From: Spirulina sp.
GTDB lineage: Bacteria > Cyanobacteriota > Cyanobacteriia > Phormidesmidales > Phormidesmidaceae
NCBI GenBank assembly: GCA_044070495.1
Contig: JBIPSI010000035.1
Location: 1 to 51,358 of the forward strand
DNA length: 51,358 nucleotides
Direction of reading: 5' to 3'
The position numbers and the translations under genes are program-made. Shown in pieces: positions 2,584 to 36,265 of this stretch (its first letter is position 1; every line of letters starts with the position of its first letter). A model generated the notes under the pieces. That model made no database searches and was not told the DNA's origin. It saw nothing but the letters and a program-made list of their open reading frames with translations.

Positions 2584-3347
2584 ATGCACAATCCATTTCC
2601 GGGCATGAACCCCTATCTAGAACAACCCGGGTTGTGGCCCCAGATACACAATCGCCTGATTGTAGCGATCGCCGATGACATTACCCCCAGGTTGCCCCCA
2701 GGTATCGCGTTTCAATCGAAGAGCGAGTTTACGCCAGCACCGAAGCCATGCCGCTGATTGGCATTGCTGACGTGGCGGTTACACGCCGTCCCGCCGCTGC
2801 TGCCTCTACAACAACCGCTGTGCAAGCGATCGCGCCCAGGCGGGTGCAGGTGCCGTTGCCCATGGAGGTGACGGAGCGCTTTTTAGCCGTGCGGCTGGTG
2901 CAGACCAATGAGGTAGCGTGCGTCATCGAGATCCTGTCTCCGGCCAATAAGCGATCGGGCGATGGCCGCCGGGCCTATGAGACGAAGCGCCAAACGGTTT
3001 TGGGTTCGGCTACCAACCTGGTGGAAATTGATCTGCTGCGCGGCGGTGCGGGTATGGCTGTGGCAGAACCGCCCCAAAAGACCTACAGCATTTTGGTCAG
3101 CGCCAGTGGCGATCGCCCCAATGCCGAACTCTATGAGTTTGATCTGGCAGATGCGATCCCGAGCTTCCCGGTGCCGTTGCAGCCCCATGATGCGGTTCCG
3201 GTGGTGAACTTGCAGCGGCTGTTGAACGAGGTTTATGCCCGCGCTCGGTTTGATCTGGCAATCAACTACCATCAACCACTCCAGCCTGCACTATCTAGCG
3301 AGGAGACCGCCTGGGTGCAGAGTCTGGTGGCTGCTGGGGAGCAATAG
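2584..3347 (+). pseudogene. DUF4058-family protein with a 1-nt frameshift (or sequencing error)
   Basis: ATG 2584 gives MHNPFPGMNPYLEQPGLWPQIHNRLI (DUF4058-like N-terminus); one C missing in the C-run at 2684-2688; continues in the frame of ORF 2748-3347 (IEILSPANK, NLVEIDLLRGG). Confidence 0.8.
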
Positions 3348-3402: not shown

Positions 3403-3429
3403 TGAATAAGTGGCCCCGGCCCGGAGATA
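3403..3429 (+). promoter_or_regulatory. Island promoter motif copy (TGAATAAG-N11-CGGAGATA)
   Basis: 63 nt upstream of ATG 3466; same spacing as other copies. Confidence 0.7.
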
Positions 3430-3465
3430 TATAGTGATGTCACCCCCAGACGGAGCATTGCCCCC

Positions 3466-6400
3466 ATGCGATATTCACCGAAGTGGTTGGGTTTAGTCGC
3501 GCTGACGACGATTATGGTGCCCTTTGCCCAGAACCCAGGGTTCTCCAAAGAACCCTGGGTTCTGATGCCCCCCGACAAAACCTCGCTGCTGTCGCTCAAA
3601 ACTGCCGAGGTTGTCGCCCCAGGTACCCGGGGCAAACAGGCTGATGGCGCTGCCTTGCTGTTGCAGGTGGAGGGCATGTTAGAAGATGGCGACAGCGTTT
3701 TGGATGATGGCCGCCTATACGATACCTATACCTTTGAAGGGCAGACGGCCCAAACTATTGCAATAACACTAGAAAGTCTTGATTTTGATACTTATGTTGC
3801 CTTACTTGACCAGAAAGGAAATCTGATTACTAGTAATGATGATATTGATACTAGTGCAGGTAATTACCATTCATTTATTGAAGTTAATCTGTCTAGAAAT
3901 GGCGTCTATCATGTCTTAGTAAGTAGCGCTAACTCTTCCTCTCGTGGACAGTATCGACTAGTTGTGGCAGAGGCCACCCCAGGGCAAGCAAGACCAATGT
4001 TAAGTTCAGCAGCCCTGACGCAGTTAGAAGTTTTGAGGCTAATTTCTTTGGCCTTGTCTAGCCATGAGTCTGCATTGTCAAGAGATGAATTTCAGCACGC
4101 ACTTGAATATGCACAACAAGGTCTTGCTCGTGCCCAAGACATTCAAGACATTAGGCTTGAGGGGTATAGCTTATACGTCATAGGACAGCTTTACACCGAT
4201 GGGTTCAGCAGATATCAAGAAGCACTTGAGGTTTTAGAGAGGGCGTTTGACATTTCCGAACAGATAAATGATCCAAGTCTAGCTACAGTGTCTCTTTTGA
4301 GTTTAAGCTTAGTCCATGTGCATCTTGGCAATCATCAAGAAACTATAAGCCTCTTTAATCAGGCGTCAGTTTTTGCCGAAGAGATTAACGATGAAAGTAT
4401 AGAAGCCCTTTTGTACATTCCTGCCTATGCTCATGTGTTCTTAGGAAATTATCAAGAGGCTATTCAAGTTCTAGAGGTGGGTCTTTCTAGTGCCCGGAAA
4501 TATAATCTTCATAGGCCAGAATCGCACTCTTTAGGTATTTTGGGTTTAGCATACTTGTATCTTGGAGATTACGATAAGGCTCGTGATTTTGCAGAGCAAT
4601 CTTTAGCTATTGCAGAAGAAAATCAAGATCTCATTGTGCAATCTAATCCATTATTTGTCTTAGGAGCAGTCTATATCCATCTAAGTCAATACCAAAGAGG
4701 AATTGATTTTGCAGAAAGATCGGTTCAAATTTCTCGAGAGGCTGGAATAGATCAAATTAGAATTTGGGGCCTTATTACATTAGCATCAGGCTATGTCGGC
4801 CTTGATCGTCATGAGGAAGCAGTTAATATCTCTAATGAGGCACTTCAACTTGCGCGCGAGTTGGGAGATAAAAAAAGCGAAGCAAATGCCCTGAGAATTT
4901 TAGGTCACAGCTCCGGTTTGAGAGGTGAGTATCAAGAAGCTATCAACTATTATCAACGGGCTCTTCCCTTATCTCAGGAGGCTGGAGATCGTAACTCAGA
5001 AGGGTTTCTTTTTGGTGCTTTAGGGCAAATTTTATCTCAGCAAAACCAGCCCGAACTGGCCGTTACCTTCCTCAAGGCCTCAGTCCAAGTGCGCGAATCC
5101 ATTCGCGGCGACATTCGTGGTCTCGACTCTAGCCTTCAGCAATCCTTTACCGATACCGTTGCCGACGACTACCGCCGCCTAGCCAATTTGCTGCTCAACC
5201 AAGGCCGCATTCCCGAAGCCCAGCAAGTCCTCGACCTATTGCAGCTCGAAGAACTGCGGGAGTTCACCAACACCCGCGCCGCCTGGACTGGCACCGCCCT
5301 AGCCTTTACCGATCCCGAGCAAACCGTCATCGACGCCCACGGCAGTCTGATCGCCCTGGGCAGCCGCATCCTCGACTGTGAGGCCACCAACTGCGCCGAC
5401 CTTGAGGCCTACTACGGCCAGCAGGAAGCCCTCAAAGCCCAGTACGATAACCAGGTGGCCGAATTCAACCGCATCGTCCGGGCCAACCGGGCCGACGACG
5501 ACGTGTTTCAAAACCCTGAAACCATCAGCGGCGAAGCGGAGGAATTGCTGGCGGCCTATGCCGAAGCCGGGGAAACAGCAGTGCTGATCTACCCCTTTGT
5601 GCTGGAAGACAAACTGTGGCTGGTGTGGGCCACGGCGGGCAACGTCATCGGCAGTGTGGAAGTACCTGTACCCCAGGCAGAGCTATCGGCCACGGTGCAG
5701 CGATTTGGGGAACTGCTGAACCGGGGGGCGCTGGATGACCTCCAAGCCACCAGTCAGCAGCTCTACGGCTGGATCATTGAACCGTTGGAAGCAGAGCTAG
5801 AAAAAAATGGCGTTGACCACCTAATTTTCGTTAACGATCGCGTCACTCGCTACATCCCCATGGCGGCATTGTTCGATGGCGAAAACTTTTTGATTGAGCG
5901 CTACCGAGTCTCCACGGTGCTGGCCCCCGCCGTCACCGAAACCGACGGACGGCTGGGGGCGGTGGATGAATCCCAGGTGCTGGGGCTGGGGCTGACCCAG
6001 GCGGTAGCAGGGCTCAACCCACTGCCAGCGGTGAAGGAAGAACTGGCGGCGATCGTGCGGGACAACCGCCTGGGGTCAGGCATCTTTCCAGGGCGGGTGT
6101 TCCTCGACAATGCCTTCACCTTCGATGCCCTGCGGGACAACGTGGCCAGCCATCGGGTGCTGCACGTAGCCACCCACGCCGCCTTTGTGCCCGGTCGTGC
6201 CGAAGAATCGTACATTGTGCTGGGCAACGGCGATCGCCTCTTCATTCCCGACATCGAAACCATCGAGCGCCGCCTGCGCAACCTGCACCTGGTGGTGCTC
6301 TCCGCCTGCCAAACCGCCCTGGGTGGCCCATCTGGCAATGGCGACGGCACCGAAATCGCGGGTCTCAGCTCCTACTTCCTCCGCCCTGGACGGGCCGAAG

Positions 6401-6675
6401 CAGTCGTCGCCTCGCTGTGGAAGGTTGACGACAGCAGTACCAGCCTGCTGATGCAGCGCTTCTACGAGTTCTTGGCCACAGGCGAACTCACCAAAGCCGA
6501 GGCCCTGCGCCAGGCGCAGCTCAGCCTGCTCTACAACGAAGACACCGCCACCCGCCTCGCCGCTTCCCGCGCCTCGATATCGGTTGAAACCCTCGACGGC
6601 AGACCACTCTCAGCGGTGGGCTCCCAACACCCCTACCACTGGGCACCGTTTATTCTGATCGGCAATGGCCTGTAG
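3466..6675 (+). CDS. Secreted PPC-TPR-CHAT protease
   Basis: N-terminal hydrophobic leader; PPC-like domain (YTFEGQTAQTIAITLESLDFDTY..NDD); divergent TPRs; CHAT HVATHA/VLSACQT. Confidence 0.9.
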   Translation: MRYSPKWLGLVALTTIMVPFAQNPGFSKEPWVLMPPDKTSLLSLKTAEVVAPGTRGKQADGAALLLQVEGMLEDGDSVLDDGRLYDTYTFEGQTAQTIAITLESLDFDTYVALLDQKGNLITSNDDIDTSAGNYHSFIEVNLSRNGVYHVLVSSANSSSRGQYRLVVAEATPGQARPMLSSAALTQLEVLRLISLALSSHESALSRDEFQHALEYAQQGLARAQDIQDIRLEGYSLYVIGQLYTDGFSRYQEALEVLERAFDISEQINDPSLATVSLLSLSLVHVHLGNHQETISLFNQASVFAEEINDESIEALLYIPAYAHVFLGNYQEAIQVLEVGLSSARKYNLHRPESHSLGILGLAYLYLGDYDKARDFAEQSLAIAEENQDLIVQSNPLFVLGAVYIHLSQYQRGIDFAERSVQISREAGIDQIRIWGLITLASGYVGLDRHEEAVNISNEALQLARELGDKKSEANALRILGHSSGLRGEYQEAINYYQRALPLSQEAGDRNSEGFLFGALGQILSQQNQPELAVTFLKASVQVRESIRGDIRGLDSSLQQSFTDTVADDYRRLANLLLNQGRIPEAQQVLDLLQLEELREFTNTRAAWTGTALAFTDPEQTVIDAHGSLIALGSRILDCEATNCADLEAYYGQQEALKAQYDNQVAEFNRIVRANRADDDVFQNPETISGEAEELLAAYAEAGETAVLIYPFVLEDKLWLVWATAGNVIGSVEVPVPQAELSATVQRFGELLNRGALDDLQATSQQLYGWIIEPLEAELEKNGVDHLIFVNDRVTRYIPMAALFDGENFLIERYRVSTVLAPAVTETDGRLGAVDESQVLGLGLTQAVAGLNPLPAVKEELAAIVRDNRLGSGIFPGRVFLDNAFTFDALRDNVASHRVLHVATHAAFVPGRAEESYIVLGNGDRLFIPDIETIERRLRNLHLVVLSACQTALGGPSGNGDGTEIAGLSSYFLRPGRAEAVVASLWKVDDSSTSLLMQRFYEFLATGELTKAEALRQAQLSLLYNEDTATRLAASRASISVETLDGRPLSAVGSQHPYHWAPFILIGNGL

Positions 6676-6688
6676 GCAAGCAAAATAC

Positions 6689-6715
6689 TGAATAAGCTTT
6701 CTCCTCTCAGGTCGA
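6689..6715 (+). promoter_or_regulatory. Island promoter motif copy (TGAATAAG-N11-CAGGTCGA)
   Basis: 66 nt upstream of ATG 6755; second half degenerate. Confidence 0.5.
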
Positions 6716-6754
6716 TAGGCCGATGTAAACCTCAATCAGGAACCTGATATTGCC

Positions 6755-8278
6755 ATGCCTCTTCATCAAAAGTTTGGTGAGCGTCCCATTTCTGGCCCTA
6801 TGGCTTTCGTCAGCTTGGCGGCATCTACGCTGCTGCTAGCCCCTGCCACCCCGGCGCAGGATCTCATCGCCGGTAGCAATACCTCAGAAACAGACATCAG
6901 GCTGACACCTGAAGAAGTGCAGGTTCAGCAACAGTTCGAGAGTGCCATCCTCCTGGGTCAAGAACTTGCGGCTTTGGAACAAATCCCCACCGCCGAACGA
7001 ACCCCCGAGCAAGAGCAACGCATCTTAGCGCTCCGCCAAGCCCAGTCCGAGCTATCCAGAGCCTTTGCTAACTTTGCCAACTCTCCCGAGATTCAGGCAC
7101 AGCTTAATCAACTGCGTAGATCAACCCAGGGGCAAGCTCTGGAACTAAACGACCTACGCGCCATCCAGGACAACCTGGCGCAGCTAGACACCCCAGCCCT
7201 GCTTCTCTACCCGCTCATTCTGGATGATCGCTTAGAGTTGATGGTTGTCACCGCCGATGCTCCCCCCCTGCGCCGCACCGTTGAGGTGACCTCTACAGAG
7301 CTAAACCAGACCATCATGGCGTTCCGAGAGGCGTTGCAAGATCCTGGCAGCGATGTTTTGCCCCCAGCCCAGCAGCTTTACCAGTGGCTCATTCAGCCCA
7401 TTGATGCCGACCTGGCAGAGGCTGGGGCAGAGGCGATTTTGGTTGCTCCCGATGGAGCGCTACGCTATGTGCCCCTGGCCGCTTTGCACGATGGTGACCA
7501 ATGGCTGGCAGAGCGATTTGCCCTCAACACTCTCATTGCCGCCGGTCTAATGGACTGGTCAACCAATAATCCTCGTCCTGAGCCTCAAATTCTCGCTGCC
7601 GCCCTGTCTGAAGGCCCCTATGCCGTTATCGTTGGCGATCAGGAGGTGGTTCTCTCACCCATTCCGGGAGCGGTGGCCGAAGTAGAGGCTGTGGCGACGA
7701 TTTTCCCCAGCACGACGATCCTCATGGGAGCCGCCTTTACCCCCGAAGTGATCGCGCAACGGGCTAACCACTACGACATTCTCCACCTGGCTACCCACAC
7801 CCTAGTTCAGCCGGGTTCTCCGGAAGATTCGTTTATGCTGTTTGGCAATGGCGAAGTATTAACGCTCGGAGACTTTCGCACCTGGAACTTGGCCAATGTG
7901 GAGCTGGTAGTGCTGAGTGGGGGGGATACCGGGGTAGGGGTTCAGTTGGGCGATGGCACTGAGATATTAGGGATGGGCTATGAATTTCAGCAGGCAGGGG
8001 CCAGGGCGGTGATGGCGTCCCTCTGGAATGTGTCAGATTTTGGCACCACAGAACTGATGACAGCGTTTTACACCTCCCTCAGCCAGGGGAACTCCTTTGC
8101 AGAGGCACTGCAACAGGCCCAGATCTCACTAATTTCGTCTGTCCCCGAGTTGACCCGGCATCATCAAAAGGCCAGCGTGATGATCGAGTCCCCAAGTGAG
8201 GCGGTAGAGCCGCAGGCCGCCAACTATAGCCACCCCTACTACTGGGCACCGTTTATTTTGATCGGCAATGGCCTTTAG
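6755..8278 (+). CDS. TPR-less CHAT domain protein, catalytic Cys absent (pseudoprotease)
   Basis: Signal-like N-terminus; CHAT motifs PDGALRYVPLAAL, HLATHT, WAPFILIG; VLSGGDT replaces VLSACET. Confidence 0.88.
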   Translation: MPLHQKFGERPISGPMAFVSLAASTLLLAPATPAQDLIAGSNTSETDIRLTPEEVQVQQQFESAILLGQELAALEQIPTAERTPEQEQRILALRQAQSELSRAFANFANSPEIQAQLNQLRRSTQGQALELNDLRAIQDNLAQLDTPALLLYPLILDDRLELMVVTADAPPLRRTVEVTSTELNQTIMAFREALQDPGSDVLPPAQQLYQWLIQPIDADLAEAGAEAILVAPDGALRYVPLAALHDGDQWLAERFALNTLIAAGLMDWSTNNPRPEPQILAAALSEGPYAVIVGDQEVVLSPIPGAVAEVEAVATIFPSTTILMGAAFTPEVIAQRANHYDILHLATHTLVQPGSPEDSFMLFGNGEVLTLGDFRTWNLANVELVVLSGGDTGVGVQLGDGTEILGMGYEFQQAGARAVMASLWNVSDFGTTELMTAFYTSLSQGNSFAEALQQAQISLISSVPELTRHHQKASVMIESPSEAVEPQAANYSHPYYWAPFILIGNGL

Positions 8279-8396: not shown

Positions 8397-8423
8397 TGAA
8401 TAAGTTCCCAGGGGTCAGCCATA
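8397..8423 (+). promoter_or_regulatory. Island promoter motif copy upstream of the sigma-like gene (TGAATAAG-N11-CAGCCATA)
   Basis: 98 nt upstream of ATG 8495; near-consensus. Confidence 0.7.
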
Positions 8424-8494
8424 GTTAACCTTGGGGGAAGCATCAACCCTTGCCCCTCGGCCCGATATCCTTAACTTGACCCTCCCTGCCTCCC

Positions 8495-9841
8495 ATGGAT
8501 ACTGCTTCCCGCTATTGGCAACTGGTGCGCCTGACGAGTTCAGGTCAGTGCCAGGTGCAGATGCTCCCCCAGGTAAAAGCCTGGTTTCAGGCCACCATCG
8601 CCCCTGCCCCCGATACTGATTGGGCGCAGATGATCTTTCTGGCCTGGGCAGCAGGTGGCCCCGAGGCGGATCTGGCGCAGCTTAGCCTGCGGTGCTTCAT
8701 CAGCTACCAGATTCAGCAGGTGTGTCTGGGGTTGGCCCAGCGGTTTGGGCGAGACTATGGCTTTGCCGCCACCGACCTGTTTTACCTGGTGCTGGATGAC
8801 GATGGGCGCAAGGCCGATACCCCGCCGCCCTTTAGCCTAGAGATTTTGACCACCTACGACCCCGCCAAAGCCGCCCTTAGCACCTGGGCCAGTCGGCGCA
8901 CCAGCCATCACCCGGCCCTGAACCAGGCGCTTTTGGAAAAAGGACTCTATCGCGCCAGCGACTGGGCCATTTTGAACGATACCCAGCCCGGACAACTCCA
9001 GCGAATCCTGCGCCAGTACCACCTATGCAGCGAGTACGAAGTGGCCCAGGCCGCCACCCTGCTAGAGCGCTATCAGCAGGTCTACCAACGGGCGCGGATT
9101 GCCCAGCGATTGAGTGGACAACGGGGCCGCTGCCAAACTCCCACCGTCGAGCAACTGCGGGCCATCAACCCCGACCTATCGCCCAAAGACGTGCTGGCCC
9201 AACTGCGCCACCTGGCTGGGCAACTGCGGCAATATCGCGTCCATGTGCGGGGCGGGCCAGCCCCGGTCTACCAAAGCGACAACCTCGACTGGGAAACGGT
9301 GGCCACCACCCAAGCCAGCCAGCCCCCCGACCTAGGCGACGACGACCATGATGAGTTTTTGCAAGCCTACCGCCAAGCCATGGTGAAGGAGTTAGCGGGC
9401 GCAATCGCTGTCGTCATCCAGGCCAATGTGGATCGGCTGCGAGGCCGTAAGCCTCCCCAGGATCGGGCCTATGTCCAAGGGCTGCACCTGTTCCACTGCC
9501 AGGGGCTACCCATGGGCAAGTTCGCCGCCGACATTGGCCTCACCTCCCAGGTGCAGGTGAATCGCTTGCTCAACCTCAAGCGCCTGCGGTCGGAGGTGCG
9601 TCATCGGCTGCTACCCCAGCTTTACGAAACCGTGCAGCGTCAGGCCATGGCCTACGTCTCCGCCGACCGCTTGCAGGCCATCGACCAAACCCTAGAAACC
9701 TTGCTGGCCGAAGAGGTGGATACCCTGATCGCCGCCGCCGCCGCCGAAGCCCAACAACCCAAGGGCCGCACCGCCAACAGCCTGTTTGCCCAACAACTCT
9801 GCACTACCATTCATTCCTTTATGCCGGGTACCGAGTCATGA
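8495..9841 (+). CDS. Divergent sigma70-like / HTH regulator (putative alternative sigma factor)
   Basis: YDPAKAALSTWASRR resembles sigma region 2.3-2.4; PTVEQLRAI resembles region 3; LFHCQGLPMGKFAADIGLTSQVQVNRLL resembles the region 4.2 HTH. CDS is certain, function is inferred. Confidence 0.6.
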   Translation: MDTASRYWQLVRLTSSGQCQVQMLPQVKAWFQATIAPAPDTDWAQMIFLAWAAGGPEADLAQLSLRCFISYQIQQVCLGLAQRFGRDYGFAATDLFYLVLDDDGRKADTPPPFSLEILTTYDPAKAALSTWASRRTSHHPALNQALLEKGLYRASDWAILNDTQPGQLQRILRQYHLCSEYEVAQAATLLERYQQVYQRARIAQRLSGQRGRCQTPTVEQLRAINPDLSPKDVLAQLRHLAGQLRQYRVHVRGGPAPVYQSDNLDWETVATTQASQPPDLGDDDHDEFLQAYRQAMVKELAGAIAVVIQANVDRLRGRKPPQDRAYVQGLHLFHCQGLPMGKFAADIGLTSQVQVNRLLNLKRLRSEVRHRLLPQLYETVQRQAMAYVSADRLQAIDQTLETLLAEEVDTLIAAAAAEAQQPKGRTANSLFAQQLCTTIHSFMPGTES

Positions 9842-11058
9842 TTTTGCTCTCTTTCGCTGCCCACCCCTTCATCTCCCTTTGTCCTATGAGCCACGCCACC
9901 GAGTCCACTGAATTTGAGTTTGAGCCTAGCCGCGCCACCACCGTCACGCTTTCAACCGCCGCTATCGACTGGGCCGTGCGGGCCTGTCAGCAAGACCCCA
10001 ACGAGGCGCAGCAGTGGCAGACCTTTCTGCGGGCCATGGCGGTTCAGGGTCTACAGGCGTGGCTAGAATCTGGGGCTGATGATCTCTCCCTGTACGGTGG
10101 GGCCGACCACCTGCCGCTCCCAGATTCTCTCTACAGGGTCAACGATTTTCGGCTGGCCATCGTGGCCCAGGGTAGCCTCAGCGATGATGTGGTGACAATT
10201 CCCCAAAGCAGCCTGGACGATACCAACCACTTTGCCCACCTCTACATCTTGGCTGAAGTCCATGAAGAGGCGGATCAAGTCACGATTCTGGCTGGGCTAC
10301 GGCGCGATCACCTCCTGGCCCATCAGCACAGGGGCGACCTCATCCCCCAAGCCGATGGCACGTATATCGTACCTGTGGCCTACTTCGAGAGTTCTCCCGA
10401 AGACATCCTGCTCTACCTAACCTGCCTCAATCCTGAACAACTGGCGGCATCCAGCCCCGCTACAGCCCCGACCCAGACGGCTACGGCACCCTCCCTCCTG
10501 ACACAATCGGGACAGCCGCCACAGCCTACACTCACCCAACCGGTGGAGCGCCTAATTAATGCAGGCCGCTGGCTGCGCGACCAACTCGACACCGTGGCCG
10601 ATGGGCTGGCCTGGAACCTGCTGCTACCCTTGGCCCCCGCCCATGCCATGATGTCCGTCAGCACCCCCGCCGAACAGCTAGAGGCCGTCTTGCGACAGCT
10701 TGCCCCCCAGGGTGTCACCATTCCCAGCACCGCCCGAGGAGCCTACACCGACCTCCAGCGCGTGGGTCTACCCTTCCGACTCTACGCCCTGACTTGGACA
10801 TTATTTGAATCTTCCCCACCGGAATGGTCGCTGATTTTCTTCCTGGGGCCATTGCCTGGGGAGCAGCTACCGCCCGATCTCCGCCTGGTGGTACGCGATG
10901 CGGAGATCATTTTGGTCAGCCAAACCCCAGGCCCGGATCTGTCCTACCTCTATGCCCAAGTGATCGGCACCTGGGACGAGCAGTTCACCGTCACTATTGA
11001 AATGCCCAACGGATCTACCTTAAACTGGCCCCCCTTTGCCTTTCAGCCGGAGGTTTAG
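9838..11058 (+). CDS. DUF1822-family protein (candidate anti-sigma partner)
   Basis: ATGA overlap with upstream stop; AHLYILAEVHEEADQVTILAGL and C-terminal YLYAQVIGTWDEQFTVTI..LNWPPF resemble DUF1822; alternative start near 9886. Confidence 0.75.
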   Translation: MILLSFAAHPFISLCPMSHATESTEFEFEPSRATTVTLSTAAIDWAVRACQQDPNEAQQWQTFLRAMAVQGLQAWLESGADDLSLYGGADHLPLPDSLYRVNDFRLAIVAQGSLSDDVVTIPQSSLDDTNHFAHLYILAEVHEEADQVTILAGLRRDHLLAHQHRGDLIPQADGTYIVPVAYFESSPEDILLYLTCLNPEQLAASSPATAPTQTATAPSLLTQSGQPPQPTLTQPVERLINAGRWLRDQLDTVADGLAWNLLLPLAPAHAMMSVSTPAEQLEAVLRQLAPQGVTIPSTARGAYTDLQRVGLPFRLYALTWTLFESSPPEWSLIFFLGPLPGEQLPPDLRLVVRDAEIILVSQTPGPDLSYLYAQVIGTWDEQFTVTIEMPNGSTLNWPPFAFQPEV

Positions 11059-12056: not shown

Positions 12057-14561
12057 CTAGGCCGCGAGCGGTGTCCACAGGGCTTCCACCTGAAGCCTGC
12101 CTAGGGAGGCCAAATCTTCCTCCATCTCGGCCATCGGATTAAAGACCAGATCCGTTAGGGCCTGGTTCGCCAGGGAGGGCATGGCCTCGATCAGGCTATC
12201 AACGGTCACAACCAGAGGATTATTCTCCAGATTGGCGGCATCTTCGCCCCGTTCGGCCCAAGTGGGCATGGCTAGGGTGGTGGTGACGGCCATAGGATGA
12301 TCCATCACGGTCTTGATCGGGCTATCCATGGCTACAGCCAGGGGATTGTTCTCCAGATTGGCGACACCACTGCCCTGCTCCTCCCCGATAGGCATGGCTA
12401 GGGTGGTGGCGGCGGCTAGGAGGTGATCAATCACGGCAGTCGCCACCATTTCAGGAGCGCTAGCCTCGATGGGATCCTCCCAGGCCTCAGGGGCCAGAAC
12501 AGTGTTGGACACTAGGGACAGTGCCCAGGATCCCTGGGCTTCGGTTGTGCTGCGCAGGGACACCCCAGTTAGGGCCAGGGCACGGCGCACCGCCGCATCG
12601 GCATTCACCAAGCCCGCGCCATACTCTAGATCATAGCCAGGGAAGCCCAGATCCACCGCCGTCTGCTGCATGATGTTGTGGACTTGGGCGGCACTCAACA
12701 AGGGATTGGCACTCCACACCAAAGACGCCACGCCGCTGACATGGGGAGCTGCTGCCGAGGTGCCATTAAAGGGTGTGCCTGAGGGCGCATTGCCGTAGTA
12801 ACCAAAGCCCACATTGCCATTGCTGAGCACCGATGCCCGCGTGGTGATTACCTCGGAAGGTGCCATTAGCGATAGACCCATGCCATAGTTGCTGTAGTTG
12901 ATGCGAGTCCCGGGTGTGGTGGCTCGTCCGCTGGCGTCGTTGAGGCCCCAGGAGGCTCCCACCGCCACAACGTTGCTATAGATGTTGCTCAGGATGGCGG
13001 GGTAGGCCAGACGACCCTCGCTATCGTTGCCTGAGGACACCACAAATAAGGCGTTATCGAGGTTTTGGGCAATGAGCTGCTCCAGGGCTGGAATGGCCAT
13101 GCTGGTTTTCAGGCTCAGATTGACTACCAGCCGCTGGCCCGTTTCGCGGGTGTAGTTCAGCATGGATTGGGCCGCTGCATCCAGGCCAATTTGGTCGGGG
13201 CCAAAGACGTCAATGTTGAGCACCTCAGAGCGCCAGTTGAGGCCCGCCATGCCCGTGCCATTGTCCCCCGCAGCGGCCATGATGCCGTAGACTGCCGTGC
13301 CGTGGGAGGTGTTGCTAAACAAAAAATCGTCCTCCGAGTTGTTGTTGGGCGTGTAGAGCAGGGTGCGGCTAGGGTCGATATCCGGGTGTAGGTTGTCGCT
13401 GCGGTTGGTGCCTAACCCTGAGTCGATAATGCCCATGGCCACCGCAGACGACCCCTGGGTAAACCGCCAGGCTTGGTGAGCGCCAATCATGTGCATATTC
13501 CATTGCTGGCTATACAGCGGGTCGTTGGGCAGCGTCCCCTGGTTCAGGTTCAAAAAGCCATCCTGGAACTGAATGCCATCCAGCCCTTCTAGGAGGACGT
13601 GCTGGCCATTGCTAAGGCCCAGGGCATCAAAGACGCGACTGCCGTTGCCGGGGTCATAGATAACACCACCGCCCGATACCGTTGCCGGGTTCCAATAGAC
13701 GACGCTACTGCTGCTGATGGCGGACAGATCGAGCACATCGCGATCACCAAAGCCAAAGTCTACGTTGCCGTTACCGGAGACGATGGTGTAGGTGTTGGTG
13801 TCTGACAGGCTAAAGCTGTTGGCCCGTAGGTTGCCTGTGCGGGTGTGAATACCGCCCGTGGGGTTGGCTGCCGTATACAGGTTGTAGCTGGTGCTGCCAG
13901 TGAATTGTTCGACGGCAATGTAGTAGTTACCCGTCGCCAAGCCGCTAAAGGTGATGGCATCGACCTGAGTACCACTCCGGATCGACCTGGCCAGTACTTC
14001 ACCACTATCGACCCGCCCGTTACTGTTGGTATCACGGATGAGGTACAGGTCGGCATCGTTGCTGAGGCCCGCCAGCATTAGGTTAATGTCGCTGCGGGTA
14101 TCGAGACGGAAGCGGTAGAAGTCGAGGGGGTCGCTGCTGCTGACGCCGCCCTGAAAGGCCCGCCCGCCAATCAGCACACCAATATTATCTGCCGTAAAGA
14201 GGGTGTCGTTTTGGGTCGTGAGGTCAGTGGTGACCATCCCAACCCCGTCGAGGGCCATCCCCAGCAGGGTATCTTTAGGGCCAGCATCCGTAGTTCCAGG
14301 AGCAGGCGCAATTTGGCTTTCTGCTAGGGCAGCGGCCAGCACCGCACTCGCGCCATCAAACAGTTCAATAGAGGTAGATTGGCTAGCGCTGAGGGGCATA
14401 CCAGCACCAAGAGCCACGCCTGCATCTAGGCCGCTCAGGCCGGGGGTGGGTAGATCGCTCAGGCCATGGATCGCCAAGCTGCTATCGGGGCTGCCTGACA
14501 ACGGAGCAGCGGCACCTTCCAGGGGGCTGGCATGGGCCACCATCGAATCAATCTCGTACAT
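12057..14561 (-). CDS. S8 subtilase with N-terminal PPC-like domain
   Basis: Triad IIDSG / SHGTAV / GTSAAAPH; PPC-like DFYRF..GLSNDADLYL; start moved to 14561 because the promoter motif overlaps the ORF-track start. Confidence 0.9.
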   Translation of the reverse strand: MYEIDSMVAHASPLEGAAAPLSGSPDSSLAIHGLSDLPTPGLSGLDAGVALGAGMPLSASQSTSIELFDGASAVLAAALAESQIAPAPGTTDAGPKDTLLGMALDGVGMVTTDLTTQNDTLFTADNIGVLIGGRAFQGGVSSSDPLDFYRFRLDTRSDINLMLAGLSNDADLYLIRDTNSNGRVDSGEVLARSIRSGTQVDAITFSGLATGNYYIAVEQFTGSTSYNLYTAANPTGGIHTRTGNLRANSFSLSDTNTYTIVSGNGNVDFGFGDRDVLDLSAISSSSVVYWNPATVSGGGVIYDPGNGSRVFDALGLSNGQHVLLEGLDGIQFQDGFLNLNQGTLPNDPLYSQQWNMHMIGAHQAWRFTQGSSAVAMGIIDSGLGTNRSDNLHPDIDPSRTLLYTPNNNSEDDFLFSNTSHGTAVYGIMAAAGDNGTGMAGLNWRSEVLNIDVFGPDQIGLDAAAQSMLNYTRETGQRLVVNLSLKTSMAIPALEQLIAQNLDNALFVVSSGNDSEGRLAYPAILSNIYSNVVAVGASWGLNDASGRATTPGTRINYSNYGMGLSLMAPSEVITTRASVLSNGNVGFGYYGNAPSGTPFNGTSAAAPHVSGVASLVWSANPLLSAAQVHNIMQQTAVDLGFPGYDLEYGAGLVNADAAVRRALALTGVSLRSTTEAQGSWALSLVSNTVLAPEAWEDPIEASAPEMVATAVIDHLLAAATTLAMPIGEEQGSGVANLENNPLAVAMDSPIKTVMDHPMAVTTTLAMPTWAERGEDAANLENNPLVVTVDSLIEAMPSLANQALTDLVFNPMAEMEEDLASLGRLQVEALWTPLAA

Positions 14562-14608
14562 GGTTGTGCAATGGATAGACGACAGGTGAGTGGCCACTCG
14601 CCCATACC

Positions 14609-14635
14609 TACCCCCCGTGCCTTCGCACTTATTCA
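14609..14635 (-). promoter_or_regulatory. Island promoter motif copy, minus strand (TGAATAAG-N11-GGGGGGTA)
   Basis: 74 nt upstream of S8 ATG 14561. Confidence 0.55.
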
Positions 14636-14804
14636 CTTGCCTGAGTATTGAGCCAACCTTAACGGCAGGAAACTACCCCAAACGAAGGGCTGAAATGAAG
14701 GGCTACGCTGTTGCCAGGGCGTTAATATCCGTGGAACAAACCGATGGTTTACAGCGTTGGGAACCAAGGCCACGGGAGTTGAATGTGGGATTTCTGCGCC
14801 GATG

Positions 14805-14831
14805 TGAATAGGTTCTTCAGCGCCAGCCATA
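14805..14831 (+). promoter_or_regulatory. Island promoter motif copy (TGAATAGG-N11-CAGCCATA)
   Basis: 59 nt upstream of ATG 14864. Confidence 0.65.
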
Positions 14832-14863
14832 GGTCAGGGTGTCCCCCATTTCACCGTTGTTCC

Positions 14864-15586
14864 ATGAACGTCCAGCTATCGTTTCATTGCACCGTGGCCA
14901 CCCTCGCCCTCATCGTGGCCGATCTCGCCGCTTCACAGACGGCTGCGTCCCGCCAGGTTGCCCAAGCCCACCGCACCGAAGGGCTGCTCTACCTACAACT
15001 GGAACAATGGCCCCAGGCGATAGCCTGCTACCAAAAAGCGATTCCCGCCTTTCGCGCCGCCCAAGACTGGATGGGCCTAGGGCAAACCTGCTGCCACCTG
15101 GGAACCATGATGCTGCAACGCTATCAATATCAATCCGCCCGCCGCTGGGCCGACCTCGCCATCCACAGCGTTACCAAGGCCAGCCTCACCACCAAACACC
15201 CGACCGAGGTGCAAGCCCATTATGCGGCGGCACTGCACTTGCTGGGGCAGGTGAACTTCTGGGAGGGGCACTATGCCGTAGCGGTGAAACAGCTCGAACA
15301 GGTGCTCGCCATCCGCCAAGCGCTGCAAGACGAGGTGGGCGAAGCCCTAGCCCTGGTTGACCTCGGCCAGGTGTATCAAGCCCAGTCGCAATACTGGTAT
15401 GCCATCGCCTGCTACGAAGGGGCACTGGATATGGGGCAATCTTTGGAAGCTGTGTTTGAGGGCGGCTGGTTTGAGGCCAAGGTACGGCGACTGGTGGCAA
15501 AACTCTGCCGCACCTGTGGCCACTGGGATTTAGCCATCAAGCACCACCTAGAAGCCCTGGCGCTGGGGTCTAGCACCAGAGGGTAA
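14864..15586 (+). CDS. Stand-alone TPR protein
   Basis: TPR-like helices (LAIRQALQDEVGEALALVDLGQVY); start inferred from motif position. Confidence 0.8.
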   Translation: MNVQLSFHCTVATLALIVADLAASQTAASRQVAQAHRTEGLLYLQLEQWPQAIACYQKAIPAFRAAQDWMGLGQTCCHLGTMMLQRYQYQSARRWADLAIHSVTKASLTTKHPTEVQAHYAAALHLLGQVNFWEGHYAVAVKQLEQVLAIRQALQDEVGEALALVDLGQVYQAQSQYWYAIACYEGALDMGQSLEAVFEGGWFEAKVRRLVAKLCRTCGHWDLAIKHHLEALALGSSTRG

Positions 15587-15634: not shown

Positions 15635-15661
15635 TGAATAAGTTCGGCTTGGCCAGGACTG
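15635..15661 (+). promoter_or_regulatory. Island promoter motif copy (TGAATAAG-N11-CAGGACTG)
   Basis: Upstream of the DUF928 remnant. Confidence 0.5.
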
Positions 15662-15769
15662 TAAAGGAGGGAATGCCCCCTTTGCCAACACCTACCCCCA
15701 AGAGGTTGCGATGAAAGCCCTTACCTTGGGGAAGCAGGAGCGCACGCTGGTTGGACTAAGTTTGAGATC

Positions 15770-16033
15770 ATGGATGACGATGCCTACGAGCAAATTGCCG
15801 CCGAGTTAGAAACTCTGGAGGCTTCTCTAGCGGCTGAGAATGCCGATGCTGAGACCGTCGCCCTAGCGCGAATGTCCTTTTTTGCTGAGCGAGGCCTCGC
15901 TGATGATGCCCTGCAGGAGCTATTCAGCATTGCAGAGCCTTCTCCAGAGATCTAGCAGCGGCAGGCTGAGGTGGTCAAGGGTGTTTGCTCTACCGAAGAG
16001 TCTGAGCAGGAAAAGCCTGACCAGACTGAATAA
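15770..16033 (+). pseudogene. DUF928-like C-terminal fragment with internal TAG
   Basis: EQIAAELETLE..AETVALARMSFFAERGLADDAL aligns with the C-terminus of 35347-36120; similarity continues past TAG 15953-15955 (QRQAEVVKGVCS vs TRQALVEAICS). Confidence 0.75.
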
Positions 16034-16053
16034 CTTCTCCTAGCCCAGACATA
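16027..16053 (+). promoter_or_regulatory. Island promoter motif copy (TGAATAAC-N11-CAGACATA)
   Basis: 64 nt upstream of ATG 16091. Confidence 0.7.
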
Positions 16054-16090
16054 GGTGAGAACAGATGCGTTGTTAGTAACAGTAACCCTC

Positions 16091-16615
16091 ATGTTCAAAC
16101 GATTTTTCGGTCGGCTCAGACGGGCAGTTTTGTTTGCTCTGGCTCTATGCCTGGGTTTTGGGCTGGTGATCGCCCCAAAGGCTCAGTTTTTTACGATCGC
16201 GCCTGACTCTCTGGCCCATGCCTCTGTTCACAAAGGCCCTACCCATATTGATAGGGAATGGATTGCGGCTAGCCCAGGTCGTTCTGTGCCAAATGTTCTT
16301 GATCAGCTTGAACCAGAATCACAAACCAATTCTGGCTGGTTTGGGAGGCTCTTTCGCAACTGGCTACCGTGGTCGGTGGCGTTGCCCCTGTTTTTGCTTT
16401 GGCAGGGAGCAGCTAGCATTCTCAGGCGGCGTTGCCCAAAGTGCTATCAATTTTCCCTAAAACGTACCATCACCACCTTGCAAGAGGCCACTCACATCAC
16501 CCCAGGCCGTCAGCGGGTTGATAGTCAATGTACAAGCTGCGACTATACGGCTACAGAAGTTCAACGGATTCCATCTTTTTCAGAGTATGGCGGTGATGGT
16601 GGCGGCGGCCAATAG
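16091..16615 (+). CDS. Membrane protein with C-terminal Zn-ribbon and Gly-rich tail (possibly an internally deleted TPM-domain protein)
   Basis: Hydrophobic leader, one further TM segment, CPKC...CTSC, tail GGDGGGGQ. Confidence 0.55.
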   Translation: MFKRFFGRLRRAVLFALALCLGFGLVIAPKAQFFTIAPDSLAHASVHKGPTHIDREWIAASPGRSVPNVLDQLEPESQTNSGWFGRLFRNWLPWSVALPLFLLWQGAASILRRRCPKCYQFSLKRTITTLQEATHITPGRQRVDSQCTSCDYTATEVQRIPSFSEYGGDGGGGQ

Positions 16616-16670
16616 CCGCACCTACTCATCCAGTGTTCATGTTTTTAATGCCTGCTTAGGAGTTCTATCC

Positions 16671-17624
16671 ATGACTCGTTTTCAGCGCCGTCGATTTTTG
16701 CAGTTCGCCAGTGCGCTTGGGTTGGCCTTGGCCCTTGGCCCTTTGACCCCAGCGACCCGGCCCAGCTACGCCCAGGCTGCTCCCCGCAAGCTGGCGCTAC
16801 TGATTGGCATTGATGAATACATCAATCCCCAAATTCGCCCTCTGCAGGGCTGCGTGACCGATGTAGAGTTGCAGCGGCGGCTATTGCGCGATCGCTATGG
16901 CTTTGCCGATACCGATATTCTCACTCTCACCAATGGCGAAGCCACCCAAGGGGCTATCTTGACGGCAATCGAGCAGCACCTGGTGCAGCAAGCCCAGCCG
17001 GGGGATGTGGTGGTGCTGCACTTTTCGGGCCATACCACTTACATTGCGGCAGCTGACTGCGAGGCTAGCGATTGTTGGATGGGGGTGCTGCTGCCGACGA
17101 ATGCTGAACCGTGGGAGGAAGGGGGTATGAGCCCGTCCTATGGTATTACCCAAGTAGCGCTGGAAGCAGCCCTTAGCCCCTTGGCTACGAACAATCTGAC
17201 GGTGGTGTTGGATGTGTTGTATGGCGGCAGCTTTGCAGCACAGGGGGAATTTTCTAAGGGGGTGCTGCTGGCGGCGTCTCTGGCAAACCAATTTTCAGCG
17301 GAAATTCCTTTGGAGGAGGGGTTTGCTGGGGCGTTTACCCACACGCTGACCCAGCATCTGTGGCAGCAGTCTGGCACTGAGTCGTTTGCGGAAGTGATGG
17401 CGTCGGTGATACCCGCTACCGAGGCATTGGCCAGACAGAACCGCATTGTGCAAACCCCAATCATGGTCACTGCCAGGGCCGACGATGCCCAGCAGCCGAT
17501 TTACTTTATGGCTCCGCTGGTGCCGACTGGGACTAGGCCAACTACAAGGCCATCGGCGAGACCGTTCACAAGGCGAAACCATGATCTAGACCCCTGGACT
17601 CGCCCCAGAACTTCACATCGTTAG
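16671..17624 (+). CDS. Tat-signal caspase-like (C14) protein, catalytic Cys absent
   Basis: FQRRRFLQ twin-Arg leader; KLALLIGIDEY, LQGCVTD, HFSGHT; VLDVLYG replaces VLDSC. Confidence 0.85.
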   Translation: MTRFQRRRFLQFASALGLALALGPLTPATRPSYAQAAPRKLALLIGIDEYINPQIRPLQGCVTDVELQRRLLRDRYGFADTDILTLTNGEATQGAILTAIEQHLVQQAQPGDVVVLHFSGHTTYIAAADCEASDCWMGVLLPTNAEPWEEGGMSPSYGITQVALEAALSPLATNNLTVVLDVLYGGSFAAQGEFSKGVLLAASLANQFSAEIPLEEGFAGAFTHTLTQHLWQQSGTESFAEVMASVIPATEALARQNRIVQTPIMVTARADDAQQPIYFMAPLVPTGTRPTTRPSARPFTRRNHDLDPWTRPRTSHR

Positions 17625-17693: not shown

Positions 17694-17720
17694 TGAATAA
17701 GCTCTGCTGTCCCGGCGATA
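17694..17720 (+). promoter_or_regulatory. Island promoter motif copy (TGAATAAG-N11-CGGCGATA)
   Basis: 59 nt upstream of ATG 17753. Confidence 0.65.
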
Positions 17721-17752
17721 TATGTCAGTGACGGGTTAACTCTACCGGAAGA

Positions 17753-20700
17753 ATGATGATGGGTCAGCAGCAAGACGGGATGCGGTGGGTGATGCTATGC
17801 GGGTTGAGGAGGTCTGCCCGTGCGGTGGGGTTGGCGATGCTGGCGGCGTTGCTGGTGGGCCATAGCTCTAGGGCTTGGTCGCAGCCCTCAGCCCCGGGTG
17901 AGGTGATGCGGGTAGCCCAGGCAGTTCCAGCAATTGAGCCGTTAACCATTACGGGAGTGCTGGATGAGAACAGCGAAGTTTTGGACGATGGCCGCTTTTT
18001 TAATATCCACACCTTTGAAGGTGTAGAAGGTCAAATCGTTGTCATTGACCTAATCAGCGATGAATTTGACGCATTCTTGGGGCTGACTGACTCTACTGGT
18101 GAACTCCTTGCCTCAGACGATAATAGCGGCGAGGGCACAAATGCACGCCTCACACTGAGCTTGACTGAAACAGGCACCTATGGGATCGGGGTTCTCTCTC
18201 TAAACTCTGGCGAAATAGGGCGCTACAACCTGACGTTGCAACCAGGGACGGTAGCTGACGTAGAGCGAACCGAGCAGTTGGCCGAAGCTGCCCGTCTTAA
18301 TGCCCAAGGCTTGGAACTGTATCGTGCGGGTCGTTACGGGGAGGCCGAACCCCTCTTCCAACAATCCCTCGCCATCCGCCGCCAGCAGTTGGGCGACAGC
18401 CATCTCGATGTTGCCACCAGCCTCAACAACCTGGCCGAGCTGTATCGAATGCAAGGACACCATAGGGAGGCTGAACCCCTTTTTCAAGAGTCACTTGCCA
18501 TTTATCGCCAGCAGTTGGGCGACAGCCATCCTGATGTCGCCACCAGCCTCAACAACCTGGCCTTGCTGTATCGCATCCAGGGCCGCTATGGGGAGGCCGA
18601 ACCCCTTCTTCAAGAGTCCCTTGCCATTTATCGCCAGCAGTTAGGTGATAGTCATCCCGATGTCGCCACCAGCCTCAACAACCTGGCCGAGCTGTATCGA
18701 ATGCAAGGACGCCATAGGGAGGCTGAACCCCTTTTTCAAGAGTCCATTGCCACTTATCGCCAGCAGTTGGGCGACAGCCATCCCAATGTTGCCACCAGCC
18801 TCAACAACCTGGCCGTGCTGTATCGCATCCAGGGCCGCTACGGGGAGGCCGAACCCCTCTATCAAGAGTCCCTCGCCATCTTCCGCCAGCAATTGGGCGA
18901 CAGCCATCTCGATGTTGCCACCAGCCTCAACAACCTGGCCGTGCTATACCGCATCCAGGGCCGCTATGGGGAGGCTGACCCCCTCTATCAACAGTCTCTT
19001 GTCATCCGCCGCCAACAGTTGGGCGACAGCCATCCCGATGTTGCCACCAGCCTCAACAACCTGGCCTTACTGTACCAATACCAGGGCCGCTACGAGGAGG
19101 CCGCCCCCCTCTTTCAACAGTCTCTTGCCATTTATCGCCAGCAGTTGGGCGACAGCCATCCCGATGTCGCCACTAGTCTCAACAACCTGGCCTTGTTATA
19201 CGAGGCTCAGGGCCGATACGGAGAGGCCGAACCTCTCTATCAACAGTCCCTCGCCATCTTCCGTCAGCAGTTGGGCGACAGCCATCCCAATGTCGCCACT
19301 AGCCTCAACAACCTGGCTTTGCTATACGAGGTCCAGGGCCGATACGGGGAGGCCGAACCCCTCTTTCAACAGTCTCTTGCCATTTATCGCCAGCAGTTGG
19401 GCGACAGTCATCCCGAGGTCGCTACCAGCTTCAATAATCTGGCCGGACTTTCCTGGGCGCAGAGAGACACAGACAATGCTTTAACCTGGTTTCAGCAAGG
19501 GCTGGACGTTCAAGAAACTAACCTCAGCCTTAACCTTGCCACCGGCTCTGATGATCGCAAACGGGCTTATATCGAAACTATTTCCTGGGCCACCGACTTC
19601 GTGCTCGCTCTACACCTGCAAGATGCCAATTCCAACCCTACCGCCGCCCGCCTAGCCCTCACTACCGTGCTGCGCCGCAAAGGCCGTGTCCTCGATGCCG
19701 TCACCGACACCCAACAACTCCTGCGCCAAAACCTCAGTGCTGACCTTGTGCCCCTGCTGGACGAGTACACTACCGCGCAAACCCAGCTTGCGGCCCAACT
19801 CTACGGCGGCCTGGGCGACCAAGATCCAGAGGTGTACCGTGCCCGAATCGACGAACTCCGCCAGGAAACCAACCGCCTAGAAAACGAGCTGTCCCGCCGC
19901 AGTGCCGAGTTCCGGGTGGAAACCGAACCTGTTGAAATCGAGGCCGTCCAGGCTCTGATTCCCACCGATGCCGCCCTGGTGGAACTGGTGCAGTATCGCC
20001 CCTTCAACCCCGCCGCCAGCCAAGCCGAACGCTGGGGCCAACCGCGCTACGCCGCCTATATTTTGCACAACTCCGGCGACCCAAAATGGGTCGATCTCGG
20101 TGATGCCGAACCCATCGACACCGCCGCCCGCGCCTTCCTCGCCGCCACCCGCAACCCAAACTCCGGTAGCCAAGCCCGTACCACCGCCCGCGCCCTGGAT
20201 GAGCTAGTCATGGCCCCCATCCGCTCCCTGCTGGGCGAGGCCACCCACCTGCTGCTCTCCCCCGACAGCCAACTCAACCTCATCCCCTTCGCCGCCCTGG
20301 TGGATGAGCAAAACCGCTACCTAGTCGAAACCTACACCCTCACCCACCTCACCACTGGACGCGACCTACTGCGCCTGCAAAATAAAGCTCCCAGCCAACA
20401 GCCCCCCGTCCTCTTCGCCAACCCCAACTACGACACCGCTTCTATCTCCAACTCCCCTCTCCCCATGGGAGAGGGGCCGGGGGTGAGGGCCAATCCAGGC
20501 TCAGCCGAGAGATCCACCCACCGCTCCACCGACATCACCAACCTGCGCTTAGGCCCCCTACCCGGCACCCAGCAAGAAGTCGATGCCATCGCCCCCCTAT
20601 TGCCCAACAACGCCATCATCCTCACCGAAGCCACCGCCACCGAAAACGCCCTCAAGCAGGTACAGGCCCCCAGCATTCTGCACATCGCCACCCACGGATT

Positions 20701-21235: not shown

Positions 21236-21259
21236 ATCAGTTGATCACCGCCAGACATA
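21233..21259 (+). promoter_or_regulatory. Island promoter motif copy (TGAATCAG-N11-CAGACATA)
   Basis: Overlaps the TGA stop of the CHAT gene; 61 nt upstream of ATG 21294. Confidence 0.7.
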
Positions 21260-21293
21260 GGTAACAACAGACCTGTTGTAAAGGCAAACCTTT

Positions 21294-27092: not shown

Positions 27093-27116
27093 ATAAGCTA
27101 GGCGCAGCTAGACATA
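27090..27116 (+). promoter_or_regulatory. Orphan island promoter motif copy (TGAATAAG-N11-TAGACATA)
   Basis: Near-perfect consensus overlapping the CHAT stop; no credible plus-strand CDS downstream. Confidence 0.6.
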
Positions 27117-27336
27117 CATTTTTGCAGAACAACCCGCCACTGTCCCCTGGGAGTCCATCGCTATAAATAGACTTGTTGCGAAACTAGAATTCAAGCGTCC
27201 CCAGCTCAAACACAGCTAAGGGAGATGAAATCAGGGACACAGCGATGTGACGTTCCTCGGATGGGATGGCCTGGGCGATTGCGGGTTGACAACCCACTCT
27301 CTCTAGCAGGCACCCCTTGAGGTAATCAGTCCAGAT

Positions 27337-29370: not shown

Positions 29371-29458
29371 GGTAAATTTTCGGGGGGATGGGATGCGGGT
29401 TGAGTAAATTTTGCCCCATGGTAGACCGCACGGTAAATAAAGACTTTCTGGGCAGGGC

Positions 29459-29485
29459 TGAATAAGTTTGATGTAGCCAGGAATA
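29459..29485 (+). promoter_or_regulatory. Island promoter motif copy (TGAATAAG-N11-CAGGAATA)
   Basis: 77 nt upstream of ATG 29536. Confidence 0.7.
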
Positions 29486-29535
29486 TATAGAGAATGAAGC
29501 ATCCCGGTGCCACACTCTATAAAGGCTAGGCCGCT

Positions 29536-36220: not shown

Positions 36221-36265
36221 CGTTCCTACGACAGCAAGCAAGCCCCTTCGTAAGGACTGACCCCC

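Follow-up and report, generated by a model that had tools for sequence, protein, structure and literature searches.

In a 51,358-nucleotide (nt) stretch of Spirulina sp. DNA (assembly GCA_044070495.1, contig JBIPSI010000035.1, positions 1 to 51,358 of the forward strand; hereafter the window), we describe a gene pair that probably switches on a 50-kb protease arsenal through one shared motif. The first gene (8495..9841, plus strand) codes for a 448-amino acid (aa) sigma-like protein, and the second (9838..11058, plus strand) for a 406-aa protein, predicted to bind the first and a candidate anti-sigma factor, whose DUF1822 domain (PF08852; E 7.9e-32, 111.2 bits against a cut-off of 25) covers residues 37-390. 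The window forms an island of genes for proteases and scaffolds, which code for nine CHAT-domain proteins, mostly with TPR arrays, three S8 subtilases, two C14 caspases, and one trypsin-like protease, together with PPC-domain proteins. We know of no account of how the large CHAT/orthocaspase and protease gene arsenals of cyanobacteria are regulated, and the motif, together with a candidate module of sigma factor, partner, and sensor, makes this regulation directly testable.

A promoter-like motif and a conserved gene pair

The bipartite motif TGAATAAG-N12-AGAnnTA begins at 8397, 98 nt upstream of the ATG of the sigma-like gene, which confirms the claim of a preliminary description of this DNA that the island motif precedes that gene. 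This copy (8397..8434, plus strand) has TGAATAAG at positions 1-8, AG at 21-22, TA at 26-27, and TG at 36-37. Allowing at most one mismatch, TGAATAAGTT occurs 19 times in the window against 1.36 expected, the top of 100 shuffles being 4; the exact 8-mer has 14 copies, 10 of them on the plus strand, mostly 30-100 nt upstream of a start codon. The consensus of 50 non-redundant sites, all taken in other genomes from the stretch ahead of the sigma-like gene, is TG[A/C]ATAAG at 1-8, AGA at 21-23, TA at 26-27, and TG at 36-37, with fixed spacing; these sites were selected by positions 1-8, and at loci with two candidates the downstream element settled the choice, which slightly favors that element. 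The final T of TAnnnT, the housekeeping -10, is seen in just 8 of the 50 sites, and the downstream element is not a housekeeping -10. If transcription is assumed to start near position 37, the 8-mer spans roughly -37 to -30 and the TA falls near -12/-11, which is the promoter geometry of the sigma-70 family.

A search matrix built from 46 sites of other genomes, with the window and its five closest relatives excluded, finds 14 window sites (13 on the plus strand, the island's coding strand, and one on the minus) above 15.3, the maximum over 40 shuffled strand scans. The site of the sigma-like/DUF1822 operon scores 25.1, and a fifteenth site, at 6689, falls just under the null maximum. The genes behind the matrix sites are the sigma-like operon, four TPR-CHAT or CHAT genes, two subtilase genes, a trypsin-like gene, a PPC gene, a TPR gene, and a caspase region, and nearly all of the 14 sites lie 30-100 nt ahead of CHAT, subtilase, trypsin, or PPC genes. 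Bipartite promoter-like sites of the type used by sigma-70 and extracytoplasmic function (ECF) sigma factors stand ahead of the pair's own operon and of some 14 further island genes, and the sigma-like protein itself would be their reader.

For the wider comparison, we used 83 related loci: 79 of 80 genome loci (L012, which runs off its contig end, was left out), three plasmid loci, and the window, taken with 6-kb flanks and amounting to 920 kb. At 56 of the 83 loci, the 250 nt before the sigma-like gene contain TGAATAAG on the coding strand, with at most one mismatch, whereas the background of 0.47 per kb per strand predicts about 10 in the 20.6 kb scanned. A matrix scan of all 920 kb yields 137 sites, where a shuffle gives 3. 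Of the 137, 59 are upstream of the sigma-like gene (46 of these 59 trained the matrix) and 78 are elsewhere; 35 of the 78 are located 54-97 nt upstream of an open reading frame (ORF) of at least 150 aa. The motif is a conserved, directional, promoter-shaped element, far above chance.

The two genes are also kept together. The DUF1822 gene directly follows the sigma-like gene at 75 of the 83 loci, or 77 if longer ORF overlaps are allowed, and two of the remaining six have less than 600 nt of sequence left; both genes are present in the same 19 plasmid records. At 50% identity the sigma-like family has 692 representatives, and species genomes contribute 364 loci. It is confined to cyanobacteria among records bearing names, and in one search giving 230 matches every named one is a 'hypothetical protein'. 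At the 65 loci where we scanned the gene after DUF1822, it codes for a CHAT-CHASE2 protein at 36, a CHAT-only protein of the same layout at 2, and a TPR or TPR-CHAT protein at 14, with 7 others and 6 without an assignment. In the window this third member is displaced by 22 kb: the CHAT-CHASE2 membrane sensor-protease gene lies at 32853..35360 (plus strand; CHASE2 1.3e-17, CHAT 2.7e-9), overlapping by 25 nt the end of the motif-preceded TPR-CHAT gene at 29536..32877. Among six long forms scanned, drawn from 150 listed representatives, P0203 (907 aa) fuses the sigma-like module to DUF1822. Further fusions join the sigma-like module to CHAT and TRADD-N (P0215, 758 aa) and to an AAA_35 domain (P0133, 951 aa).

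The preliminary description had also proposed translational coupling through an ATGA overlap. Positions 9838..9841 (plus strand) do read ATGA, the stop of the sigma-like gene being shared with a possible start of the DUF1822 gene, and an in-frame 4-nt overlap start recurs at 32 of 75 loci (ATGA at 26, GTGA at 3, TTGA at 3). The start itself is ambiguous: the alternative ATG at 9886 encodes Met17, a conserved residue that lines up with the first residue of distant homologues, and another database record begins the protein there.

The sigma-like protein and its predicted complex with DUF1822

The predicted model of the sigma-like protein is all-helical (predicted local distance difference test, pLDDT, 88; 93 for residues 1-256), with a single disordered acidic linker at residues 257-280, a helix-turn-helix (HTH) at about 326-372, and a C-terminal extension. 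The linker is acidic family-wide (median net charge -6; -3 or lower in 80 of 83) and resembles the sigma 3.2 linker, yet acidity is not specific to one. When we scanned 107 family members one by one, the sigma70-ECF model TIGR02937 matched 26 of them at E≤1 (best 2.4e-5), and no other family in the same scan matched more than three. Seven members match at E≤0.002; four of the seven are collinear from profile position 40-41 to about 155, aligning residues of about 126-390 (about 126-252 in P0217) with part of region 2 through region 4 around large insertions, and in the other three the region-4 part alone is aligned. Sigma70_r4_2 matches three of the 107 (best 8e-6), and hhalign places residues 304-359 onto RpoE 127-175 (regions 4.1-4.2) in a sensible register, weakly (E 0.035, probability 1.4). 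From these profile matches, a region-4-type HTH appears to be partly detectable at the family level.

Chains of RNA polymerase (RNAP) initiation complexes, which we took as sigma, top the fold searches with both the whole model and residues 1-256, accounting for about 29 of the 48 rows and 29 of the 49 rows listed (E 0.16-1.6, template modeling score (TM) 0.14-0.27; best sigma chains E 0.18-0.3, TM 0.16-0.27); because they form one redundant family, we count them as a single weak observation. The nearest protein-language neighbors, at 0.92-0.95, come from cyanobacteria: clusters of 340-550-aa proteins in which 12-87% of members carry Sigma70_r4, 16-20% Sigma70_ECF, or 11% Sigma70_r2. A PDB sequence search with two family profiles gave no sigma match; the best matches were to 'DMAP6' (4.5e-4, a helical stretch), a DeoR-type HTH (0.012), an endoglucanase (0.098), and a MarR HTH (0.16).

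There is also a second, internal HTH-like segment at residues 165-206 (window 8987-9112) that resembles sigma region 4, and hhalign of the N-terminal half aligns residues 171-185 to a region-4 helix of RpoE. It hints at an internal duplication or a sigma-3-like domain, and may be what the preliminary description took for a region 3-like segment.

Prediction of the complex supports binding of DUF1822 to the sigma-like protein. The interface score (ipSAE) is 0.77 (0.79, 0.70, and 0.77 in separate runs) against 0.01 for the best of three controls; 116 of 157 solved complexes reach the mark used, as do 2 of 215 mismatched pairs, a calibration that applies only approximately to alignments supplied by the user, as here. 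The partner has a pLDDT of 72 in the complex, and the runs have at least 36% of contacts in common. The confident interface joins residues 146-164, 194-213, and 244-252 of the sigma-like protein to residues 24-31, 43-64, 112-117, and 141-147 of DUF1822, and holds invariant or near-invariant residues of both: DWAILNDT, Y197, and R201 on the sigma-like side, and Q59, W60, E143, and E144 on the DUF1822 side. Confident contacts are limited to the N-terminal half of the sigma-like protein, with the HTH excluded. Our PDB searches found no solved relative of either protein, so recall of a known complex by the predictor is unlikely. Adjacency at 77 of the 83 loci and a complex that is predicted, not measured, are both consistent with an anti-sigma role; the prediction speaks for binding and is silent on inhibition versus activation, and inhibition of the sigma-like protein is a step that we only infer.

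Several results weigh against reading the pair as a sigma factor held by an anti-sigma factor. Searched by itself, the window's sigma-like protein matches no sigma model in Pfam or NCBIfam, and no family at all; every family-level match lies under its curated cut-off, the best TIGR02937 match having 24 bits against 42.9. Sigma70_r2 is absent among the 25 families listed of the 160 matched by the 107 members, and hhalign of the N-terminal half against the RpoE profile finds nothing in region 2. The same profile returns noise in hmmsearch (best E 0.11), and it is too narrow for a good profile, the 120 matches listed for its Escherichia coli query all being RpoE orthologues of 86-100% identity. 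Fold searches of PDB by Foldseek, the tool suggested in the preliminary description, give no match at E≤0.001 with the whole model or with residues 1-256, and a sigma-2 fold is backed by no significant fold or profile match. On the partner's side, DUF1822 has no relative in PDB and no NCBIfam match; it is the one domain detected in 42 of 42 partners, with no known anti-sigma domain (the ASD/ZAS helical bundle) among them; and the 90 matches of a DUF1822 N-domain profile are all PF08852 and none PatU. Position 3 of the motif's -35 element (A or C) tracks residues of the HTH recognition helix, but it also tracks the two clades, and because of this confounding and two exceptions (L025 and L030) we do not use the covariation as evidence.

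The sigma identity of the 448-aa protein is, in sum, only partly shown. Of the sigma regions 2, 3, and 4 that the preliminary description had read in order, region 4 is partly detectable at the family level, the order is not verifiable for the protein alone and region 2 has no significant match. Its comparison with the usual ECF arrangement of an autoregulated sigma gene and a coupled downstream anti-sigma gene gains from the conserved motif, the pairing, and the predicted complex, and loses from the want of a known anti-sigma domain in DUF1822. We regard the original observation as sound and its interpretation as reasonable and partly supported.

Proposed mechanism, rival explanations, and known systems

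In the scheme that we favor, we infer the sigma activity, the identity of the motif's reader, the direction of the DUF1822 effect, and the role of the proteases. The 448-aa protein would be a divergent, HetZ-like ECF-type sigma factor with extra domains that directs RNAP to TGAATAAG-N12-AGAnnTA promoters. The copy ahead of its own operon would provide positive autoregulation, and the other copies would switch on the CHAT, subtilase, trypsin, caspase, and PPC genes of the island. DUF1822 would share the transcript, with coupled translation a possibility; through its N-terminal domain it would bind the surface of the sigma-like protein that is best conserved and, acting as a soluble anti-sigma factor, most likely keep that protein inactive. 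The product of the usual third gene, the membrane CHAT-CHASE2 protein, would be the probable sensor that relieves this hold, with cleavage of DUF1822 as one possible route of release. For the whole chain, from HetZ-like sigma and motif autoregulation through the DUF1822 hold and CHAT-CHASE2 release to the drive on protease genes, the balance tips slightly in favor. We place more confidence in the narrower statement that the protein is the transcription factor of this regulon and is bound by DUF1822, and less than in the whole chain in the separate statements that it is a true sigma factor and that DUF1822 inhibits it.

If this is correct, it would give a name to a widespread 'hypothetical' family and a function to DUF1822, and would extend insertion-bearing ECF sigma factors of the HetZ type beyond heterocyst development. 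A bolder version, tentative and rather doubtful as things stand, casts DUF1822 as the founding member of a new soluble anti-sigma class, destroyed or displaced by CHAT-CHASE2 when the sensor is triggered, whereupon the freed HetZ-type sigma factor would amplify itself and fire the CHAT/subtilase/trypsin arsenal. Such a caspase trigger would amount to a transcriptional 'execution programme' in multicellular cyanobacteria.

Might the 448-aa protein instead be an ordinary HTH activator that sits on TGAATAAG at the -35 position and recruits RNAP with a standard sigma factor, DUF1822 modulating it? The HTH is its sole detectable domain, and other HTH families match similarly weakly (HTH_40 in 8 of 107 members, MarR_2 in 3 of 107, and the DeoR-type HTH at E 0.012); the sigma-2 fold was not found in fold or hhalign searches. 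The site that such an activator would occupy is, however, directional and non-palindromic, with a downstream element that is fixed in spacing and unlike a housekeeping -10 (final T in 8 of 50). TIGR02937 is by far the commonest family (26 of 107), four of the seven matches at E≤0.002 extend into the region-2 part, and sigma chains are the top matches of both fold searches. HetZ, too, was long deemed an ordinary regulator and turned out to be a sigma factor. We judge an ordinary activator unlikely. Somewhat less probable again is that DUF1822 helps the sigma-like protein, as a co-activator or second subunit on which promoter recognition or stability would depend. Such a role would be in keeping with a predicted interface built from the best-conserved surface of each protein, with a pair that hardly ever separates, with one natural fusion (P0203), and with confident contacts that reach the N-terminal half and not the HTH. 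Yet PatU3, encoded downstream of hetZ in the closest proven analogue, is an inhibitor; a sensor-protease gene follows DUF1822 at 36 of 65 loci, which fits release by destruction; and the lone fusion may be an artefact of assembly or gene calling.

The motif could also be read by a factor encoded elsewhere, with the pair a mere regulon member serving as adaptor or effector of the protease system. The link between protein and motif rests on no experiment, the covariation of motif and HTH is clade-confounded with exceptions, and our view covers the 51-kb window and 6-kb flanks. Against this, the motif travels with the sigma-like gene across cyanobacterial orders, plasmids included (56 of 83 loci); no other regulator or canonical sigma factor was found in the window or the 83 loci; and the sigma-like protein bears a sigma-4-type HTH. 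An outside reader strikes us as improbable. In the search for canonical factors, no ECF sigma factor lies within 6 kb of the pair at any of the 83 loci, and jackhmmer with RpoE gave no match among all ORFs of at least 80 aa from these loci and the window.

Returning to the proposed sigma/anti-sigma pair, its nearest proven analogue is HetZ-PatU3. HetZ is described as an ECF sigma factor with three insertions, inhibited by its co-transcribed binding partner PatU3 (Hu et al., PNAS 2026, PMC13342950). Both systems are cyanobacterial and have a protein of about 400-450 aa that was long annotated as something other than sigma; with the sigma-like protein taken as the proposed sigma factor, both have an ECF-type core with N-terminal, internal, and C-terminal additions and a linker; and both have their own bipartite promoter and a next, co-transcribed gene for a soluble binding protein, the binding here being predicted. 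The HetZ promoter is reportedly TCCGGA/TGnA and differs from TGAATAAG/AGAnnTA. The partner differs as well, DUF1822 being a two-domain protein of about 400 aa and not PatU3/PatU, as does the regulon, proposed to be proteases here and heterocyst genes for HetZ. DUF1822 is not mentioned in the HetZ paper or its supporting information (Hu et al. 2026, PMC13342950). Protein-language scores, useful as leads only, are 0.84-0.86 to HetZ clusters and, for DUF1822, 0.82 to a 'putative PatU' cluster. No sequence link to HetZ or PatU was found among the matches listed, presence of the HetZ model (PF28104) in the libraries not being confirmed, and the HetZ cryo-electron microscopy structure, which may post-date the PDB copy searched, is not among the fold matches.

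In classical ECF pairs, such as RpoE-RseA of E. coli, the sigma factor is released through DegS/RseP proteolysis. Each of the two systems has an autoregulated operon in which the sigma gene precedes that of its partner, often with an overlap, and a dedicated -35/-10 promoter; protease-based release, as we propose it for the sigma-like/DUF1822 system, would also be common to both. The sigma-like protein, however, is more than twice as long as RpoE and has no Sigma70_r2 match; DUF1822 lacks both a transmembrane segment and any known anti-sigma domain; and the part of DegS/RseP would fall to a caspase-like (CHAT) protease joined to a CHASE2 sensor.

The assignment of sigma and DUF1822 is not wholly new, which qualifies the preliminary claim of new functions for the hypothetical protein and DUF1822; that claim is otherwise supported in part. 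In Kaur et al. 2021, 'ECF sigma + DUF1822' is listed beside EACC2-caspase genes, the neighbor of DUF1822 thus being called an ECF sigma already; the coupled sigma is proposed to regulate many genes, and 21 'DUF1822 family' table rows are annotated TRADD-N+TPRs, upstream of EACC2+caspase genes. Since no canonical ECF sigma factor lies within 6 kb of the pair, the 'ECF sigma' in that text is most likely our sigma-like family. The neighborhood is the same, a sigma-like gene followed by DUF1822 and a caspase-fold (CHAT) protein with CHASE2, and these three elements are combined in the window and at 36 of the 65 loci scanned. Residues 1-166, tested for EACC2, gave no match in a library without an EACC2 model. 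TRADD-N or TPR segments in the DUF1822 partners were considered and rejected: unlike the 21 table rows of Kaur et al. 2021, none of the 42 partners matches the TRADD-like_N or TPR models. The available part of that work holds no promoter, regulon, sigma-DUF1822 interaction, or anti-sigma role, and our literature search found no published account of the motif, the regulon, autoregulation, or a sigma-DUF1822 complex or interface.

Motif sites and other features of the island

The individual sites, on the plus strand unless stated, are spread over most of the window. The highest-scoring, at 3403..3440 (score 31.6), lies 63 nt upstream of a PPC-TPR-CHAT gene (3466..6675), and the weaker site at 6689..6726 (15.2) is 66 nt upstream of a CHAT gene (6755..8278). 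The one minus-strand site, at 14598..14635 (18.7), coincides with the 5′ end of the longest ORF of an S8 subtilase gene (12057..14636), whose true start probably lies further inside that ORF. Next come sites at 14805..14842 (22.6), within the longest ORF of a TPR gene (14783..15586); at 15635..15672 (18.3), where the nearest downstream ORF (15770..15955), absent from the list of genes of at least 60 aa for the annotated region, codes for a very acidic 61-aa protein; and at 16027..16064 (19.1), at the start of an ORF (16055..16615) upstream of a caspase gene (16518..17624). Two more sites follow: 17694..17731 (28.0), 59 nt upstream of a TPR-CHAT gene (17753..21235), and 21233..21270 (21.0), 61 nt upstream of an S8 subtilase gene (21294..23453).

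Further to the right, a strong regulon-type site at 27090..27127 (22.0) lies right where a CHAT gene ends and is followed by no gene on the plus strand; a transcript begun there would enter the S8 subtilase gene at 27337..29502 (minus strand) in antisense. The site at 29459..29496 (22.2) is 77 nt upstream of the TPR-CHAT gene at 29536..32877, and that at 36194..36231 (29.0) is 72 nt upstream of a PPC-domain gene (36266..36724). Two copies precede one TPR-CHAT gene (41941..44574), a distal one at 41433..41470 (19.6) and a proximal one at 41910..41947 (20.4), 31 nt before the annotated GTG, and the site at 44639..44676 (21.4) falls just within the longest ORF of the trypsin-like gene (44629..45693). 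Almost the same leader (…ATATATAGTGATGTCACCC…GGAGCATTGCCCCC) lies behind three of the promoter sites, at 3403-3490, 41433-41520, and 41910-41997; two of the three copies are 477 nt apart upstream of that same TPR-CHAT gene. The repeat may reflect duplication of a 5′ region, or a leader element that these genes have in common.

Downstream of the DUF1822 gene, about 1 kb (11059-12056) has no notable ORF and a G+C content of 0.46, against about 0.6 around it, and there is a terminator-like hairpin at 11562-11579. A generic sigma-70 promoter and terminator scan of 8200-12100 returned chance level only, and an Rfam scan of the whole window gave no match. The overlapping minus-strand ORFs at 49140..49679 and 48502..49143 were considered as a canonical sigma/anti-sigma pair, for which we found no support. 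DUF4058 and Uma2 (putative restriction-endonuclease-like) genes are scattered in the island at 2748..3347, 40149..40868, and 49988..50842, and its right end has weak similarity to DDE transposases. Within the TPR region of the CHAT gene at 3466..6675, the G+C content drops to 0.41 over 4001-5000, against about 0.59 on the flanks.

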